In this document: positions 45,868 through 54,514 of the stretch, in pieces
How the letters are laid out: each line of letters begins with the position of its first letter
How positions within the stretch are numbered: position 1 is the first letter of the stretch
Assembly (NCBI GenBank): GCA_965204535.1
Contig: OZ241996.1
Coordinates: 288,001 to 352,000 of the forward strand
Reading direction: 5' to 3'
Source of the DNA: a bacterium
GTDB lineage: Bacteria > UBA8248
Length of the DNA stretch: 64,000 nucleotides
Notes under the pieces: generated by a model
The model's database searches: none
What the model was told of the DNA's origin: nothing
Seen by the model: only the letters and a program-made list of their open reading frames with translations
Position numbers and translations under genes: made by a program

Positions 45868-46308
45868 GTGGAGACCGAACCATTGTCCGTTTCGAGAGGA
45901 CGCCCGGATGCAGACGGCTGTTTCGTATGCGGCCCCGAGAACCCGATTGGCCTGAAAATCGCGTTCCGGCTCGACGGCGATGTCTGCCGCGCCGAGTTCA
46001 CGCCGCAGTCCGTTCACCAGGGCTACGACGGCGTCACCCACGGCGGCATCGTCTTCAGCGTTCTCGATGACGTCATGGCGAACTGGCTTTTCCTCCAGGG
46101 AATTCGCGCCTACTCGGCGAGAAGCGAAATCCGCTACCGCGACCCCCTGCCCGTCGGCACCCCCTTGCTGATTGAGGGGAGACTCAAGAAGAAAAAAGGC
46201 AGGTTCGTCGTTATGGAGGGAAAAGCGACCAGAGCGGAAGACGGTCGCGCCGTCGCCGAGGCGGAGAGCACCTTCCATGTCGTGGAAGAGGATGCGGACG
46301 GTTCATGA
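45868..46308 (+). CDS. PaaI-family hotdog thioesterase
   Basis: [12 protein letters not shown] and [11 protein letters not shown]...LDD motifs. Confidence 0.88.
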
Positions 46309-47420
46309 AAATCGGGCTGCTCAGGGAAATCAAACAGGATGAATACAGGGTCGCCTTGACGCCTGGCGCCGTAGAGGCTCTCGCGGAGGCGGGCCACACC
46401 GTGATGGTGGAAAAGGGCGCAGGCCTCGACGCCGGCATCGCGGATGCGGAATACGAGGCGGTGGGTGCGCATATCGTCTCCTCCGCGGAGGAACTCTGGG
46501 CCGAGGGGGAGATGATCGTCAAGGTCAAGGAGCCCCTGGAGCCGGAGTTTCCGATGATGCGCGAGGGGCAGATTCTGTTCGCCTTTTTGCATCTGGCCGC
46601 CTGCCGGCCCCTGGCGCGCGCACTCATCGAGAGCGGAGCCTACGGCATCGCGTTCGAGACGGTGACCTCGCCCGAAGGCGTTTTGCCGATTCTACAGCCC
46701 ATGAGCGAAATAGCGGGCAGGATGGCCGTCCAGGAGGGCGCCAAGTATCTGGGGAAAAACCTGGGCGGCCGCGGCGTCCTGCTGGCCGGGGCGCCGGGCG
46801 TTCCGCGGGGAAACGTAGTCATCCTCGGAGCGGGCATTGTAGGGAAGAACGCGGCCAAGATTGCAGTGGGCATGCACGCGGGCGTCACGGTTTTCGACAT
46901 CAATCACGCGCGCCTCGAATATATCGACGATATCTTCGACGGTCGGGTCAAGACGCTGGTATCCACGCGCTTTACCATACGCGAAGCCCTGCGCGAGGCG
47001 GATCTGGTCATCGGCGCCGTTTTGGTGCCTGGAGGCCGCACGCCGGTTCTGGTTTCGCGCGAGATGCTGGGGGAGATGAATCCCGGCGCCGTCATCGTGG
47101 ACGTGGCGGTGGACCAGGGCGGCTGCGTGGAGACGATACGGCCCACCTATCACTCGGATCCCACCTACGTCGTAGACGGCGTCGTCCACTACGGCGTGGC
47201 GAACATGCCGGGGGTCGTCCCCCGAACGAGCACCATCGCGCTCTCGAACGCCGTGCTGCCCTACGCCCTGGAACTGGCCAACTCAGGTCTCCAGGAAGCG
47301 GTGAGGCGCAATCCGCACCTCGCCGACGGCCTGAACGTGGCCGAAGGGCGCATCACACACGCGGGCGTGGCGGATGCCCTGCAAATGGAGGGCGCAAGCG
47401 TGGGGGAGGTGTTCGCCTAG
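46305..47420 (+). CDS. ald: Alanine dehydrogenase
   Basis: [29 protein letters not shown] and VANMPG motifs. Confidence 0.96.
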
Positions 47421-48124
47421 CCGCCTTCTGCGACCGGGACGCTTGCGCTTTCAAGTGATTTCTTGATGAGGTCCAGTACGAATTTCCCTTGAATTTCCAG
47501 GTGCCTGATCACCAGGCGTTCAGCGGCTCTCGCGTCACCGTCGAGGATGGCATCGAGTATATCCTCGTGCTCGGCCATGGAATTATCGAGACGCCCGGGC
47601 GCGTGAAGCGTGACCACGCGGGTCTTCATGATCTGCTGCCGCAGGTTCCCGATGAGCCCCTGTAGTCTCGAGTTCTCGCAAGCGCTCGTGATGTGGCGGT
47701 GAAAGTCGCGGTTCGCCGCCCAGTATTCGTCCACTTCGCCGCGCTCGTGGTGGCGCTTCAACTGTTCGAAAAACGCATGGAGCGTTTCGTTCGCCCTGCC
47801 TTCGCGAAGATTCGGGGTCGCGAGGCGCGTGGCGAGGCCCTCGAGCACGCTCGTGATGGTGTAGATGTCCAGGACTTCATCTTCGCTCACGAGGCTCACG
47901 TGCGCCCCCTTGTGCGGGACGACGGTGATGTAGCCCTCCGCCGCAAGTTCCCGGAAGGCTTCGCGGAGCGGGGTTCTGCTCACGCCCATCGATTCGGTGA
48001 GCGTCGTCTCGACCAGCTTGTCTCCCGGCTGGAAGATGCCGCTCAGAATGGCGTCTTTTATCTGTTCCGACACCATCTTGCTCAGGGATTTGGGTTTTTC
48101 GATCTGAACGCCCGGTATCCGCAC
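47417..48124 (-). CDS. GntR-family (FCD domain) transcriptional regulator
   Basis: GVSRTPLREA wHTH; FCD motifs NRDFH and AEHEDILDAI. Confidence 0.92.
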   Translation of the reverse strand: MRIPGVQIEKPKSLSKMVSEQIKDAILSGIFQPGDKLVETTLTESMGVSRTPLREAFRELAAEGYITVVPHKGAHVSLVSEDEVLDIYTITSVLEGLATRLATPNLREGRANETLHAFFEQLKRHHERGEVDEYWAANRDFHRHITSACENSRLQGLIGNLRQQIMKTRVVTLHAPGRLDNSMAEHEDILDAILDGDARAAERLVIRHLEIQGKFVLDLIKKSLESASVPVAEGG

Positions 48125-48205
48125 CTCAATCCCCCCGCGAGCCCTTGCGAAGTCTGGGCGCCATAATGGCGGATAAGTCTCCGAAGATTTTCATGCTCCC
48201 GAGCC

Positions 48206-49396
48206 TCACACCACGCCTTCGTCTCGAAGGACGTTTCTTTGCGCCTCATCCATGCCGAGGACGGATTCGAGCACCTCTTCTGTGTGCTGGCCCAGCGTGG
48301 GCGGCGGCGTCCGCACCGCGCCCGGGGTTTCGGAGAGCTTGATGGGTACGCCGGTCACCTTCGTGGGGCCGGCGACGGGCACGTCGATATCCACCACCAT
48401 CTCGCGCGCGAGAATCTGGGGCTCGTTCAACACCTGCTCAAGATTGTTGATGGGGCCGCACGGGATGCCCGCTCCCCGCAGGGTTTCGATCGTTTCTCCC
48501 ACCGTCTTCTCGGCGAAGAAGGGGTCGAGAATCCCCTGGAGCTCCAGGCGGTTGTCCACCCTGTCCTTGTTGACGGCGAATTTGGGGTCTTCCTTGATGT
48601 GCCCCAACCCCATCGCGTCGCAGAACCTGCGCCAGAGGCTGTCGTTGCCCACGCCGAGGTTGAAGTAGCCATCCTGGCACTTGTATGTCTCATACGGCGT
48701 GATGGAGGGATGCTTGTTCCCCCGCCTGGGCGGAAGCTTTCCGGTCCCGAAGTAGTTGTTCGCGTGGTAGGTGAGCAGGGCCACCTGCCCGTCGAGCATG
48801 CCGACGTCGACCATCTGCCCGACGCCCGTTTTCTCGCGGTGGTAGAGGGAGAGCAGAACCCCTTGGGCGGCGAGCATTCCTGCCGTGATGTCCCCAATGG
48901 ATGCGCCAAACTTGCTGGGCGGGCCGTCGGGCTCTCCGGTGATGCTCATGATTCCGCCCTCGCCCTGGATGACCACGTCGAAGCCGGGCTCGTTTTTCCG
49001 GGGGCCGGTCTGGCCGAAGCCCGAGAGCGAGGCGAATATCACCGCCGGGTTGATGCGGTGGATCTCCTCCCAGGAAAACCCGAGCTTGTCCAGCGTGCCG
49101 GGCCGGAAGTTCTCCACGACGACGTCGCCCTTGCGAATCAGATCGCGCAGGAGTTCCTTGCCGCGCTCGTCCTTCAGGTTGAGCGTGAGGCTTTTCTTGT
49201 TGCGGTTAATGGAGATGAAGTATGTGCTCACCCCGTTCAGAAAGGGTGGCCCCCAGCCTCGGGTGTCGTCCCCGCCCTGGGGATGTTCGATCTTGATGAC
49301 CTCCGCGCCCATATCGCCCAGCATCATGGTGCAATACGGGCCTGCGAGAATGCGCGTCAGATCGACTACGCGAACGCCTTCGAGTGGTCCAGCCAT
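48206..49396 (-). CDS. Family III (CaiB/BaiF) CoA-transferase
   Basis: PLEGVRVVDL..ILAGP, NRNKKS, ENFRPG, catalytic-Asp region SIGDITAG, PTLGQHT. Confidence 0.93.
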   Translation of the reverse strand: MAGPLEGVRVVDLTRILAGPYCTMMLGDMGAEVIKIEHPQGGDDTRGWGPPFLNGVSTYFISINRNKKSLTLNLKDERGKELLRDLIRKGDVVVENFRPGTLDKLGFSWEEIHRINPAVIFASLSGFGQTGPRKNEPGFDVVIQGEGGIMSITGEPDGPPSKFGASIGDITAGMLAAQGVLLSLYHREKTGVGQMVDVGMLDGQVALLTYHANNYFGTGKLPPRRGNKHPSITPYETYKCQDGYFNLGVGNDSLWRRFCDAMGLGHIKEDPKFAVNKDRVDNRLELQGILDPFFAEKTVGETIETLRGAGIPCGPINNLEQVLNEPQILAREMVVDIDVPVAGPTKVTGVPIKLSETPGAVRTPPPTLGQHTEEVLESVLGMDEAQRNVLRDEGVV

Positions 49397-49409
49397 GAAT
49401 GTCGCTCCA

Positions 49410-50534
49410 TCAGGTTCGGATGAGTGATATCAGCACGCCGGCCGCAATCGCCGAGCCGATGACGCCCGCCACGTTGGGGCCCATCGCGTGCATGAGCAGA
49501 AAATTGCCCGGATTCTCGTCGGCCCCCACCTTCTGGACGACGCGGGCCGCCATGGGGACCGCGCTCACGCCCGCCGCCCCGATGAGGGGATTGATCGGCG
49601 TGCGGCTGCACGCCGCCATGATCTTGCCGAAGATGACGCCGGTGGCCGTGCCGATGCCGAAGGCGATGAAGCCGAGCAGGAGGATGCCGATGGTCTCCCA
49701 CTTGAGGAAAGTCTCCGCCGTCATCGAAGCGCCCACCGAGACGCCGAGAAAAATCGTCACGATGTTGAGCAGCGCATCTTCGGAAGTCTTCAAGAGCCTC
49801 TCGACGACCCCGCACTCGCGGAAGAGGTTCCCGAGCATGAGCATCCCGATGAGGGGCGCCGCCGATGGCAGGAGAAGGCCCGTGAGCAGCGTGGTGATGA
49901 TGGGGAAGAGGATGCGGACGGGTTTTTCGATATCTTTTAGCTGCATCATCTCCCGCGAGCGTTCCTCGCTGTTCGTCAGCGCCTTCATGATGGGGGGCTG
50001 TATCATCGGAACGAGCGCCATATAGCTGTAGGCGGCCACGGCGATGGGGCCGAGCAGGTGGGGCGCCAGTTTCGAGGCAGTGTAGATGGCCGTGGGGCCG
50101 TCCGCCCCGCCGATGATGCCGATGGCGCCGGCTTCGGAGAGGTTGAAGCCCAGGAATATGCTCCCGAGCAGCGTGGCGAAAATGCCGAACTGCGCCGCAG
50201 CTCCGAGGAGCAGCGTCTTGGGGTTCGCCAGCAGCGGGCCGAAGTCCGTCAGCGCTCCGATGCCCATGAATATCAGGGGCGGAAACACGCCCGCCTTCAC
50301 CCCGAAATAGAAATAATGGATGAGGCCGCCTTTATCGAAAATGCCGGTTTCAGGGAGGTTCGAGAGCAGCATGCCGAACCCGATGGGCACCAGGAGCAGG
50401 GGTTCGAACCCCTTCTGGATGGCCAGATAGAGGAGGAGGCAGGAGATAGCGAGCATGAGGACGTCGCCGAAATGAAGTGACGCGAACCCGGTAAGGGAGA
50501 TGAATTCGGCGACCGAGTGGAACAGGCGGCTCAT
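49410..50534 (-). CDS. Na+-translocating decarboxylase beta subunit (OadB/MmdB/GcdB family)
   Basis: [41 protein letters not shown] and HAMGPNVAG motifs. Confidence 0.95.
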
Positions 50535-50947
50535 GAGACCTCCAGCAGCAGTTGAGAGGCTTCGACCTTGTCGCCCTTGCGCACGTGAACCGCCTGAACG
50601 ACGCAGTCCGAATCCGCCAGAATCACGTTCTCCATCTTCATCGCCTCCAGCACCAGGAGCGTATCGCCTGCGCGCGCCGAATCGCCCGGTGCGACCTCGA
50701 CGGAGAGGACCACGCCCGGAAGCGGAGCCAGTATCTTCCCGCCGACGCTCGTCGCCCGGGGCGCGGGCTTGCGCGCGGCGGCCGGACGCGGAGCGGGGGT
50801 AGCGGAGGGGACGGCCTTCTCCTCTTCTTCCACCCCCACGCGATGCGTCTCGCCGTCTACCGTAATCTCGAGTTCGTCCGAGCCGGGGCCGCGCTCCACG
50901 CTCACCGCGTAGCGCTTTCCGTTGATGGTCAGATGGAAATTTCTCAC
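50531..50947 (-). CDS. Biotin carboxyl carrier subunit (MmdC-like)
   Basis: Ala/Pro-rich linker and EAMKM biotinylation motif; GTG start overlaps the upstream stop. Confidence 0.9.
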
Positions 50948-51252
50948 CGACGCCTCCGCTGCATGGAATGGCCCCGGCGGGCGGTACGCGCCCATAGGGA
51001 ATCTGCGCCCCGGCGCACCGGGGGAACGAATATCTCGGGCCTTTCGGTTTCGAGGAAATATCCGGCGGCGGCGGCGAGGACGAGGTCCAGATCATCACCT
51101 TGTGCGGCGGTATCCGCATCCTCCGCCCCGGAGTCGGTCTCCTGAGGTCCTGAGCCGACGAATCTTTCCAGAAGCAGGATGACCGCCATCAGCACGAGCA
51201 GGGAGCCGAAGACGACGCCCATGCCGATGATCGTCAGTAAGATTCCGGGCAT
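50944..51252 (-). CDS. OadG/MmdD-like membrane anchor subunit
   Basis: N-terminal TM helix [15 protein letters not shown] segment, C-terminal W...R; position in operon. Confidence 0.8.
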
Positions 51253-51278
51253 GAATGCATCCACGGGGAAATCCTTTT

Positions 51279-52841
51279 CTACAGCGGAATGTTTCCGTGT
51301 TTTTTCTGCGGCCGCTCCTCGCGCTTGTGCGCGGTCATTTCGAGCGCCCGGATGAGCGCGCCCCTCGTCTGGCGCGGCTCGATGATGACGTCCACGAGAC
51401 CGTATTTCGCCGCCGTGTAGGGGATTGCGAAAAGCCTCCGGTATTCCTCTATCTTCTCCCGGCGGACCTTTTCGGGGTCCTCGGCCTCGCCGATCTCGCG
51501 CCGGAAGATGATGTTGGCCGCGCCTTCGGGGCCCATGACGGCGATCTCGGCGAACGGATAGGCGAGAACACGGTCGTAGCCCAGGCCGAACCCGCTCATC
51601 GCGATGTAGGCGCCGCCGTAGCTTTTTCTGACGATCAAGGCGATTTTCGGCACGTTCGCCTCGCTGTAGGCGAAGAGCACCTTGGCCCCGTGGCGGATGA
51701 CGCCGCCGTATTCCTGCTGGGTGCCGGGCAGATAGCCGGGCACGTCCACGAAGTTGACGAGAGGGAGGTTGAAGGCGTCGCAAAAGCGCACGAAGCGCGC
51801 GAGCTTGTCAGAACTGTCGATGTCGAGGACGCCGGCCAGGTGCGTGGGCTGGTTCCCCACGACGCCGACGGGTCTTCCCCCCAGGCGCGCGAAGCCGACG
51901 ACGATGTTTTTGGCGAACTCCGCGTGAACCTCCAGGAAATCGCCGTCGTCGAAGACATTGGTTATCAGGTCGCGTACGTCGTAGGCGTTCGTGGCCTCCG
52001 CCGGGACGACCCCGTCGAGTTCGGGGTTCTCATCGGGCGGCCACTCGGGCGGGTCGGACAGGGGCGGGTCGTCGAGATTGTTCGACGGCAGGAAGGAGAG
52101 CAGCTTCTTCACCATCCCGAAGCATTCGCGCTCGTCTCTGGCGAGAAAATGCGCGTTCCCGCTCGTCGAGCTGTGCACCGCGCCGCCGCCCAACTCCTCG
52201 ACGGATACGTCTTCTCCCGTCACCGCCTTGATGACCTCAGGCCCGGTGATGAACATCTTGCTCAGCCCGTCGACCATGAAGACGAAGTCCGTGATGGCGG
52301 GGGAGTAGACCGCCCCGCCCGCGCAGGGACCTAAGATGATCGATATCTGCGGGATCACGCCCGACGCGTGGGTGTTGTTCTTAAAGATTTGCGCGTATCC
52401 GTGAAGCGCGAGTACGCCCTCGTGGATGCGCGCGCCGCCCGAATCGAGAATGGTGACGATGGGCGCGCCCGCCTTCATGGCGAGTTCCTGCATCTTCACG
52501 ATTTTTTCCGCGTGCATCTCGCCCAGCGAGCCGCCGAGGGCGCCGAAATCCTGAGAAGCCACGAATACGAGCTGGCCGTTCACGCGCCCGCTGCCGGTGA
52601 TGACGCCGTCCCCGGGGGAGCGCCGCGCATCCATCCCGAAATCCGTGGCGCGCGTTTCGACGAAAAGGTTGAGTTCGGAAAAACTATCGGGGTCGAGCAG
52701 GAGGTCGATGCGCTCCCTGGCGGTGAGCTTCCCCTGCTTGTGCTGGCGCTCTTTCGCCGCCTCGCCGCCCAGCGCCTGCGCCTGTGAGGTAAGCTCCTTC
52801 AGCTCTTCTATCGGGTCCGGTCGATCCGGGTCGGGAGGCAA
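51279..52841 (-). CDS. Acyl-CoA carboxyltransferase subunit (MmdA/PccB family)
   Basis: GKLTARERI, DSGGARI, GPCAGGAVY, DVPGYLPG, RKSYGGAY and KKHGNIPL motifs; TTG start. Confidence 0.95.
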   Translation of the reverse strand: MPPDPDRPDPIEELKELTSQAQALGGEAAKERQHKQGKLTARERIDLLLDPDSFSELNLFVETRATDFGMDARRSPGDGVITGSGRVNGQLVFVASQDFGALGGSLGEMHAEKIVKMQELAMKAGAPIVTILDSGGARIHEGVLALHGYAQIFKNNTHASGVIPQISIILGPCAGGAVYSPAITDFVFMVDGLSKMFITGPEVIKAVTGEDVSVEELGGGAVHSSTSGNAHFLARDERECFGMVKKLLSFLPSNNLDDPPLSDPPEWPPDENPELDGVVPAEATNAYDVRDLITNVFDDGDFLEVHAEFAKNIVVGFARLGGRPVGVVGNQPTHLAGVLDIDSSDKLARFVRFCDAFNLPLVNFVDVPGYLPGTQQEYGGVIRHGAKVLFAYSEANVPKIALIVRKSYGGAYIAMSGFGLGYDRVLAYPFAEIAVMGPEGAANIIFRREIGEAEDPEKVRREKIEEYRRLFAIPYTAAKYGLVDVIIEPRQTRGALIRALEMTAHKREERPQKKHGNIPL

Positions 52842-52860
52842 TGCGCTTCTCCTGGAAAAA

Positions 52861-52875
52861 TGTATATTGCATACA
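52861..52875. promoter_or_regulatory. Candidate GntR operator upstream of the decarboxylase operon
   Basis: Palindrome TGTAT-ATTGC-ATACA 20 bp upstream of the start; minus-strand TTGACT at 52899-52894. Confidence 0.5.
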
Positions 52876-52977
52876 ATCAGCTTTGGGCTATAAAGTCAAG
52901 GTTTTCCGGGTGGGCCTGATGGGGTTTTGGGGAGAGAATCACAGCGGTGGGGAGAGAGAAAACGGCCGTTTCTATGC

Positions 52978-53567
52978 GGCTCTTGAAAAACCTTATTTCG
53001 TGATTCGGTGTATGGAACCGACCGGGGAGAAGGAGATTTCACTCCCCCCTTGAGGGGGTTATTGAAAAAGTCCCGTGGAGTGATTTTGGTTAAGCGCACG
53101 TTTTTGAAGTCAACTCCCCCCTTGAGGGGGAGTCGAAGAGCTGAGGGCGTAAGCCCGACAGCGATTCGGTGGGGGGTATAATACGGGCTGGCGATAAATC
53201 GCATTTTACCCCCCACCGCATCAGCCTTCGCACAAACCGCTCGGCTTCTGCGTCTGGCTTTCCCCTCGGGAAGCCAGACCCTCAAGGGGGGAGTGAAGTT
53301 CTTCTCTCGTCGGTCTGCAATGATCCTTAAGCCTTAAGGAAATGCTGAAAAAGCCGGCAATGCCGGGATTGCCGTCATTCCGGCGAAAGCCGGAATCCAG
53401 AGCCGATGGGTGTGGAGATACGGCGTTGCGTTTTTCTTCGATGAAGCGGGAATGTCGACTGAAAACAAAAAAAGGCGAAAAGCAAAACCCCTGGATTCCG
53501 GCATACGCCGGAATGACAAACCTTTTTCTTTCACTGACAGAACAGGCCGCATATATGCGGCCCCTAC
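52978..53567. repeat. Composite intergenic repeat cassette (GTTGAAAA-type ends, MITE-like unit 53110-53296, CGTC-REP pair 53373-53400/53491-53517, partial GTAG-REP 53545-53567)
   Basis: Modules recur at 58.4-58.8, 60.8-61.2, 62.6-62.9 and 63.6-64.0 kb. Confidence 0.85.
53110..53296. mobile_element. MITE-like element, copy 1
   Basis: Terminal inverted repeats ACTCCCCCCTTGAGGG / CCCTCAAGGGGGGAGT, internal hairpins, no coding capacity; homologous to 58502-58675 and 63706-63890. Confidence 0.7.
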
Positions 53568-53590
53568 ACACGCGCCACCCGCCAGAGTCG

Positions 53591-54514
53591 CTAGGACGCC
53601 ATTTCCCACTCGGGGATGCCCGCGTGGAGGAGTTGTCCCGGCAGCTGGCGGTTCAGGATTTTCTCGGCATGGGCGACGGCTTCCAGGAGTTTCGGCAGGT
53701 CGACCCCGGTCTCGATCCCCATCTCGTGGAGCATGTTGATCGTGTCCTCGCTCGCGATGTTGCCCGTGGCGCGCGGCGCGAAGGGGCACCCGCCCAGGCC
53801 GCCGATGGAGGCGTCGAACGTGTCGACCCCGACTTCCAGGCCCGCCAGCAGGTTTGCCAGGCCGGCTCCCCTCGTGTTGTGGAGGTGGAGCGCGTAGCGG
53901 ACGGAGGGGAATTTGCCCCGAATGTGTTCGGTCAGCTTTTTGATTTCGGCCGGGTTCGACATGCCCACGGTGTCGGCGAGGCCGATTTCCCCGCAGCCCA
54001 TGTCCACGTATTCGCCGACCACCCACTCGACGTCCTCATAGGAGATGCGCCCCTCATACGGGCAGCCGAAGGTGGCGACCACGCCGCCCCGGAGCTTGAG
54101 GCCCGCATCCAGCGCCATTTTGGCGACTTCGCGGGCGACCCCGAGCATCGTCTCCCGGCTCGCGCGGATGTTCTTCTGGTTGAACGTCTCGCTGGCGGCG
54201 ACGAACAGCATGACGCCGTCGAGTTCGCACTCGAGCGCGCGCTCCATGCCGCGCACGTTGGGGACCAGGGCTTCATACTCGGCATCTGGGCTGCGCTTAC
54301 ACCCGGCCAGCACCTCCTTTGCGTCTTTAAGCTGCGGGACGTGCCTGGGACTCACGAAACTCGTCACCTCGACCCGGCGGACGCCCGCGTCGGTGATGGT
54401 GTCGAGAAGCTTTATCTTATCCTCGGGCGATATGTATTTCTTTTCGTTCTGGAGGCCGTCCCGCGTGCCCACTTCGACGATATCGACCTTCGTGGGGAGA
54501 CTCATCGCATTCAT
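53591..54514 (-). CDS. HMG-CoA lyase-like (DRE-TIM) acyl-CoA lyase
   Basis: EVGTRDGLQNE, SFVSP..VPQL, LHLHNTRG and GGLGGCPFAP.ATGN motifs. Confidence 0.9.
   Translation of the reverse strand: MNAMSLPTKVDIVEVGTRDGLQNEKKYISPEDKIKLLDTITDAGVRRVEVTSFVSPRHVPQLKDAKEVLAGCKRSPDAEYEALVPNVRGMERALECELDGVMLFVAASETFNQKNIRASRETMLGVAREVAKMALDAGLKLRGGVVATFGCPYEGRISYEDVEWVVGEYVDMGCGEIGLADTVGMSNPAEIKKLTEHIRGKFPSVRYALHLHNTRGAGLANLLAGLEVGVDTFDASIGGLGGCPFAPRATGNIASEDTINMLHEMGIETGVDLPKLLEAVAHAEKILNRQLPGQLLHAGIPEWEMAS

Follow-up and report, generated by a model that had tools for sequence, protein, structure and literature searches.

The Na+-translocating methylmalonyl-CoA decarboxylase (EC 7.2.4.3) of Propionigenium modestum and Veillonella parvula, whose genes in P. 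modestum lie in the order A-D-C-B, is the nearest described relative of an operon that we analyze here. The operon lies in a stretch of 64,000 nucleotides (hereafter, the window; positions 288,001 to 352,000 of contig OZ241996.1, assembly GCA_965204535.1) from a bacterium of the GTDB lineage UBA8248, and is formed by six intact minus-strand genes (52841 to 47417) for a carboxyltransferase (CT), a membrane anchor, a biotin carrier, a β subunit (the Na+ pump), a family III CoA-transferase and a GntR regulator. The four pump subunits, with a two-domain CT, are those of methylmalonyl-CoA decarboxylase. Other described systems share parts of this set: the malonate decarboxylase Mad of Malonomonas rubra (EC 7.2.4.4) has a biotin carrier and a β pump, and transcarboxylase (EC 2.1.3.1; 12S/5S/1.3S), described as able to form malonyl-CoA from acetyl-CoA without ATP (PMC8085960), has a 12S subunit close to the window CT. 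We lean, if only slightly, towards the view that the pump serves as a malonyl-CoA source that replaces acetyl-CoA carboxylase (ACC), mainly by Na+-driven reversal. The features of the region, numbered as in the window, are:

52861..52899, minus strand: promoter region with a TTGACT hexamer and a FadR-type palindrome, the likely GntR operator
51279..52841, minus strand: acyl-CoA CT of the MmdA/PccB type, 520 aa, TTG start (PF01039, 634 bits)
50944..51264, minus strand: OadG/MmdD-like membrane anchor, 106 aa (PF04277, E 4e-8, above cut-off; TIGR01195 slightly below cut-off)
50531..50947, minus strand: biotin carrier protein, 138 aa (EAMKM motif, Lys104)
49410..50534, minus strand: Na+-translocating carboxybiotin decarboxylase β subunit, 374 aa (TIGR01109, 513 bits; cut-off 191)
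48206..49396, minus strand: family III (CaiB/BaiF) CoA-transferase, similar to succinate-hydroxymethylglutarate CoA-transferase (SUGCT), 396 aa (CoA_transf_3 domain, catalytic Asp169)
47417..48124, minus strand: regulator of the GntR/FadR subfamily with GntR and FCD domain matches, predicted repressor of the operon
53591..54514, minus strand: 3-hydroxy-3-methylglutaryl-CoA (HMG-CoA) lyase-family gene, upstream and outside the core (NF004283, above cut-off), syntenic in family f1 only

Successive genes of the operon are separated by 14, −4, −4, 13 and 81 nt (negative values are overlaps). An earlier reading of the window, made from the letters alone (the sequence-only reading), had described this run with a palindrome at its promoter and the transferase gene 13 bp after that for β; the six genes are indeed intact, the palindrome is real and the 13-nt gap is confirmed. 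It was also right that the operon itself has no gene for a biotin carboxylase (BC), a mutase, an epimerase or an acyl carrier protein (ACP); four mutase-family genes and an epimerase gene lie elsewhere in the genome. Contigs of relatives (about 85–94% identical) in one sponge metatranscriptome span CT-anchor, β-transferase and transferase-GntR, and are not counted here as evidence of co-transcription because DNA carry-over is possible and there was no silent control.

By every sequence feature checked, the complex is a Na+-translocating biotin decarboxylase. Residues D145, S324 and N354 of β align, in an alignment to 6iva, with the Na+ ligands D203, S382 and N412 of Salmonella OadB, the substitution of which is described as abolishing or weakening Na+ binding (PMC7274780); the four β motifs examined are conserved in 29–30 of 30 loci, and the β gene overlaps the stop codon of the carrier gene. 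Besides the carrier, the only biotin-carrier protein found in the genome is pyruvate carboxylase; biotin ligase BirA was found in 49 of 51 genomes of the phylum. Counts in what follows are for these 51 phylum genomes, for 34 genomes of the class, or for sets of loci as stated. The CT scores 686 bits against PDB 1vrg, a chain of the propionyl-CoA carboxylase (PCC) type, 606 bits against transcarboxylase 12S and 100 bits against GcdA, and its best NCBIfam match is TIGR01117 (mmdA), with 794 bits for a cut-off of 998.8. At the position of PccB D422, described as a known specificity determinant (PMC2886142), it has Ile413. The corresponding residue is Ile in 38 and Val in five of 43 lineage loci, from partly related genomes, as against Cys in 10, Asp in eight, Ile in three and Val in one of 22 BC-linked CTs. 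Ile is also found there in an acetyl-CoA carboxylase β chain in PDB (7w5u), which is suggestive, but only suggestive.

Compared with the described systems, the operon appears to be a known type of Na+ pump in a new arrangement, and not a Mad/Mdc, Gcd, transcarboxylase or ACC/PCC system. The likeness to methylmalonyl-CoA decarboxylase extends to the full set of Na+ ligands in β and to the presence of mutase and epimerase in the genome. Unlike that enzyme, however, the window complex has a CT below the mmdA cut-off and an appended family III transferase and GntR; a heme-copper oxidase is encoded by its host, whose ATP synthase is predicted to be of the H+ type; and its CT is the sole acyl-CoA CT of a lineage without ACC, in which net carboxylation of acetyl-CoA is likely. 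The complex could, like Mad, act on a malonyl thioester, but the operon lacks the ACP, the MadA/MdcA transferase, the split CT and the MadL/M carrier, its chemistry would be CoA-based and not ACP-based, and its β subunit scores 183 bits against a MadB cut-off of 597; a Mad/Mdc malonate decarboxylase is ruled out on these grounds, and glutaconyl-CoA or methylcrotonyl-CoA specificity by the CT similarities given above. In contrast to transcarboxylase, an OadA/5S domain is missing from 18 of the 34 class genomes and a membrane β subunit is present instead, and in contrast to ACC/PCC there is no dedicated BC in the operon and none above cut-off in the 51 genomes.

The evidence for a biosynthetic role comes from the rest of the genome, and the sequence-only reading had overlooked both the sole-CT status and the absence of ACC. 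The genome (G000; 95.7% complete, two contigs) has no Carboxyl_trans match apart from the window CT, and no AccA, AccD or stand-alone AccC was found in it; queries with the AccA family and E. coli AccD match only the window CT, and both the only BC domain and the only PF02436 (OadA/5S) match lie inside pyruvate carboxylase. Exactly one CT is present in 29 of the 34 class genomes, a second, weaker-scoring one in three and none in two that are fragmented; the second CT of G023, the one checked of the three, is 30% identical and lies beside a BC. AccA was not found in any of the 51 phylum genomes, the family giving only weak matches (best E 4.6e-15) in CT-sized frames, and AccC above cut-off in none of them, as against 10 of 14 controls. 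A BC domain is wholly absent from 22 of the 51, including the single-contig genomes G001, G007 and G032. Fatty-acid synthesis (FAS) is nevertheless present: FabD occurs in 34/34 class genomes and PlsX-FabH-FabD-ACP-FabF clusters were confirmed in G000, G001, G007, G028 and G032. Thirteen of the 34, among them the same three single-contig genomes, encode FabD together with the pump CT and lack both BC and OadA/5S domains, and genus g6 (G027 and G028) keeps the pump and FAS while the transferase is absent. Since FAS needs malonyl-CoA and the only CT able to make it is that of the window, the pump is likely to be its supplier. A MatB-class ligase above cut-off was found in 0/4 lineage genomes (0/5 genomes in all), a search in which no control passed the cut-off either.

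A malonyltransferase domain was seen in a frame of about 3,480 aa, the size of a type I polyketide synthase, in G000 (C2:2416861-2417706) and in several members of the genus, and would imply an additional demand for malonyl-CoA. Outside the lineage, the unrelated, 100% complete genome G037 (L124, L125) encodes FabD, a single CT, an OadA/5S domain and a separate β-anchor pair but no BC, and a Thermotoga control is also without an AccC match at 1e-30; loss of ACC in the presence of a pump or a transcarboxylase may be widespread.

If the pump is a malonyl-CoA source, Na+ entering through β, along a gradient built by respiration and an Mrp antiporter, would load CO2 onto the biotin carrier, from which the CT would hand the carboxyl group to acetyl-CoA, yielding malonyl-CoA for fatty acids and polyketides without ATP. 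Alternatively, the CT could carboxylate propionyl-CoA, and epimerase and mutase would then lead to succinyl-CoA. Methylmalonyl-CoA derived from succinyl-CoA could also charge the same biotin, with possible transfer of the carboxyl group to acetyl-CoA; this charging needs no Na+, which would explain why mutase and epimerase are universal, and it would place the complex near equilibrium. With carboxylated thioesters in excess, the complex would run in the forward direction as well. The transferase and GntR would be accessories, neither of them required in all members. Dimroth and Hilpert, in the title of a 1984 paper, reportedly state that reversed methylmalonyl-CoA decarboxylase carboxylates acetyl-CoA in vitro. 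A 2026 survey lists the in vivo use of the oxaloacetate pump as a carboxylase as unverified (PMC13147460), and we found no published account of the operon or of ACC replacement in vivo by such a pump, although subscription journals or supplements may hold one. If the proposal is true, pump reversal, so far seen only in vitro, has a cellular use, and an ATP-free route to malonyl-CoA becomes available to bioenergetics and metabolic engineering; a lineage whose single-contig genomes encode FAS but no BC or 5S, with a compact four-gene complex, is amenable to expression work. A wider version, in which a single Na+-driven membrane carboxylase replaces both ACC and propionyl-CoA carboxylase throughout the phylum and a transferase of new specificity (CoA-dependent, for malonate or methylmalonate) salvages dicarboxylates, is possible, but we would not expect it to hold in full. 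It would mean that the committed step of FAS is paid for by ion influx and not by ATP, and CoA-dependent malonate activation could be linked to a gene through the transferase.

Several points weigh against a role in malonyl-CoA supply. The case for it is argued by elimination, and all of the genomes are metagenome-assembled, with close kin that are not independent. Other sources of malonyl-CoA may exist, namely unrecognized ligases among the acyl-CoA synthetases, oxidation of malonate semialdehyde or import of malonate by a TRAP transporter. BC domains occur in frames of pyruvate carboxylase size in 16/51 genomes, and there is an orphan BC in G026 (L231:6927-8411) and, in G051 (L232:6498-8219), a BC-carrier fusion that lies at the end of a contig beside glycosylation genes; these two are the only stand-alone BC candidates among those examined in the phylum. 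Ligand-sensing repressors are more typical of catabolic operons. No Mrp antiporter was found in G028 or G032, and some members are titled as groundwater genomes, in which the Na+ drive would be weaker. Finally, Na+-driven carboxylation is predicted to be thermodynamically feasible but marginal: with two Na+ entering per H+ leaving, and with assumed seawater, cell, ion and CO2 values, the equilibrium ratio of malonyl-CoA to acetyl-CoA is 0.0004–0.6 at a ΔGm′ of 37 kJ/mol, the value given in PMC8085960, and 0.00004–7.5 over 31–43 kJ/mol.

The pump and the transferase are closely linked. β was found in 33/34 class genomes, the transferase gene follows it directly in 29 of the 30 best loci across the phylum, and β lies directly upstream in 34/34 loci in which the transferase is at least 68% identical; among 46 more distant transferases (below 68% identity) only one, at locus L081, adjoins a pump. 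In family f4 the block CT-anchor-carrier-β-transferase-GntR is intact while the outer flanks are reshuffled, and the link thus exceeds background synteny. That the transferase is conserved with the pump, as the sequence-only reading required, is borne out by these counts. A transferase orthologue (E ≤ 1e-150) is present in 43 of the 51 phylum genomes; the eight misses are six fragmented assemblies and the two genomes of g6, in which the four pump genes remain but transferase and GntR are absent. In quick searches with SH-aLRT support only, the lineage CTs form one clade (SH-aLRT 95; 33 chosen rows), with g6 nested in f4, consistent with vertical inheritance, and the transferases form another (SH-aLRT 91; 14 representative lineage loci and the window copy, 16 near-identical paralogue loci having been left out).

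The closest solved relative of the transferase in PDB is SUGCT, a dicarboxylate CoA-transferase also named succinyl-CoA:glutarate CoA-transferase. The window protein shares the family III fold and the catalytic Asp169 with SUGCT and with the oxalate transferases Frc/YfdE, and its W48, Y59 and H229 match SUGCT Trp91, Tyr102 and His253 by motif, but it scores below every curated equivalog cut-off (387/750, 328/522 and 319/504; score/cut-off). SUGCT is described as favouring succinate and glutarate over malonate (bioRxiv 10.1101/2024.02.07.578422). A protein database search returned only the lineage's own transferases among the best 120, and clustering of the neighbours of the 46 distant loci gave no shared substrate clue. 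The transferase is likely to be an accessory that swaps CoA among malonate, methylmalonate, succinate and acetyl- or propionyl-CoA.

The first alternative is that the complex works forwards, as a methylmalonyl-CoA decarboxylase at low oxygen: succinate would be led through mutase and epimerase to the pump, the transferase would be a propionyl-CoA:succinate enzyme, and malonyl-CoA would come from another route. Such a loop is described as established in Propionigenium (PMC8085960) and the preference reported for SUGCT suits it, as does the occurrence of mutase-family genes in 51/51 phylum genomes and of an epimerase-like gene in 34/34 class genomes (above cut-off in 15), both more universal than the transferase. 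These genes in trans also mean that the operon does not stand alone, and since the pump persists in g6 without transferase or GntR, the "stand-alone" cycle of the sequence-only reading is not supported for this lineage. A further point in favour is a transferase, 53% identical, that adjoins CT and mutase genes in L100, although it falls outside the lineage's clade. What makes the forward loop unlikely in our view is, first, that it leaves FAS without malonyl-CoA in the 13 genomes lacking BC and 5S domains, and second, the bioenergetics of the hosts. A heme-copper oxidase is present in all five genomes examined (Mrp in three of them, Nqr in none). The F-type c subunit, which resembles the chloroplast ring, reads Q..ESL..Y, that is Gln, Glu, Ser and Tyr, but with Leu at position 67, where predicted Na+-type rings are described as carrying a polar residue (PMC2359735); the F-type ATP synthase is therefore predicted to be H+-type, and a Na+ gradient would not drive ATP synthesis directly. 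The exception is G032, with an extra V/A-type K subunit that has Na+-type residues, which fits forward pumping. Thus the search for a Na+-type ATP synthase that the sequence-only reading had proposed gave, G032 apart, an F-type c subunit without the polar residue of Na+ rings. As an observation in its own right, the L100 locus (L100:2522-8182, Desulfarculaceae) has a CT, a mutase, a B12 subunit and a family III transferase, the last a candidate for a propionyl-CoA:succinate enzyme within that family.

Somewhat more doubtful still is the loop that the sequence-only reading had put forward, in which the transferase moves CoA from acetyl- or propionyl-CoA onto malonate or methylmalonate and the pump decarboxylates the product and exports Na+; part of the malonyl-CoA would then also feed FAS. 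The tight, conserved linkage of pump and transferase would be explained, and the FadR-type operator would be in keeping with it; SUGCT-type enzymes are described as acting weakly on malonyl-CoA/malonate (EC 2.8.3.13), and Frc and YfdE (34% and 39% identical) are known to move CoA from mono- to dicarboxylates. On the other side, g6 keeps the pump without the transferase, and no malonate carrier was found: MatC is absent from four lineage genomes (G000 and three others), and MadL/M, MdcA and MdcC, searched with Rhodobacter queries, had no match in G000 (MadM was found in 0/51 genomes, a result uninformative alone as no control matched either). An aerobe whose ATP synthase is predicted to be H+-type would gain little energy from the loop, and reliance of a whole phylum on external malonate for its lipids seems unlikely. 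With an H+-type c subunit, an oxidase in 5/5 genomes and no malonate carrier found, a Na+ gradient as the energy output of the operon is not supported for this lineage.

Such a loop fits well in another organism. Locus L081:5628-11839 (Acidobacteriota, Vicinamibacterales) encodes MatC, a family III transferase, a CT, a 151-aa protein without Pfam match, a biotin carrier and β, and its genome has its own AccC above cut-off. Like the window operon it has the transferase (53% identical), CT, carrier and β in one run (L143 is a partial relative), but the gene order differs, MatC is present, and the CT and the transferase belong to other clades; it appears to have arisen independently of the lineage's operon and, given those clades, its substrate need not be the same. 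MatC carries the Pfam label dicarboxylate carrier, and we take it to be a malonate carrier. The transferase-fed malonate pump keeps its merit for L081, with its MatC and own AccC, while a stand-alone energy loop is not supported for the window lineage. Of the loci seen, L081 is the most promising as a true CoA-dependent malonate pump. A metagenome scan with the L081 CT found β at 3/80 loci, the transferase at 1/80 and MatC at 0/80, and a plasmid search gave 20 β matches, with no family III transferase in the two examined.

An improbable alternative is that the transferase has nothing to do with the substrates of the pump and is the partner of the upstream HMG-CoA lyase-family enzyme, acting on 3-hydroxy-3-methylglutarate or a similar hydroxy-dicarboxylate. 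The name of the closest PDB match is in line with this, as is the lyase gene upstream in 31/34 loci (the other three being truncated). However, the lyase gene is adjacent in 0/7 f3/f4 loci with flank, transferase and pump stay together except in g6, and the conserved promoter element of the CT gene lies between lyase and CT. Least probable of all is that CT and carrier form an ATP-dependent acyl-CoA carboxylase with a BC borrowed from pyruvate carboxylase, methylcrotonyl-CoA carboxylase or an orphan gene, β being a side activity: some BC domain in 29/51 genomes, the orphan BC of G026 and a CT close to PCC β chains speak for it, but β keeps all its Na+ ligands and overlaps the carrier stop codon, and the BC domain is missing from 22/51 genomes, including three in single contigs.

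The promoter region points to control by the regulator of the operon. The palindrome TGTAT-N5-ATACA at 52875-52861 includes TTGTATGCAA, one mismatch from TTGTATACAA; a FadR-type site spans 52876-52861 and the TTGACT hexamer lies at 52899-52894, while a promoter scan called no sigma-70 promoter in the upstream region of the operon. The palindrome fits the FadR-subfamily consensus given as GTM-N0-1-KAC (PMC4494728). An element TTGTATRCAA, at most one mismatch from TTGTATACAA, is present in 25/41 CT upstream regions; as the 10-mer by itself is not rare (38 sites with at most one mismatch in the genome), the weight of the operator candidate rests on this conservation. A related motif, TTGTMTGAT, occurs upstream of CT in four f4 loci. 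GntR was seen at 26 of the 30 best loci (within a 1.5-kb flank) and is gone from the locus in G043, G027 and G028; the element is missing in g6 and in G043, where the locus is syntenic except that GntR is missing. Its absence where GntR is absent suggests that the palindrome is the GntR operator and that this control is dispensable in some members, in which case GntR likely represses or tunes the operon in the others.

Around the operon, a hotdog thioesterase-like gene and an alanine dehydrogenase gene (window 45868-47420) converge on its end, with synteny kept in G026 and in most f1 loci. The spacer between lyase and CT (window 52900-53590) contains several inverted and direct repeats (e.g., with arms at 53020-53056/53279-53315 and 53374-53400/53491-53517); similar text occurs elsewhere in the genome and the spacer differs in length among relatives, so that the repeats are likely REP/MITE-like elements.

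Two other loci of G000 have sites that resemble the operator. One (L244, C2:1113087-1117599) is an operon for a B12-binding subunit, a CoA ligase, MeaB and a mutase whose TMRQ motif has Ile for Tyr, presumably similar to a 2-hydroxyisobutyryl-CoA mutase cluster; a tandem TTGTAT..CGTATACAA site in its promoter is at most two mismatches from the operator consensus in 10/10 genomes of the genus. The methylcitrate cycle queries gave best matches of 26% for PrpD and 42% for PrpB, and one gene of the citrate synthase II/methylcitrate synthase family above cut-off. A gene of this family (L243, C2:701600-702900) has AAAGTATACTGTATACAAT 89 nt upstream, and possibly belongs to the same GntR regulon.

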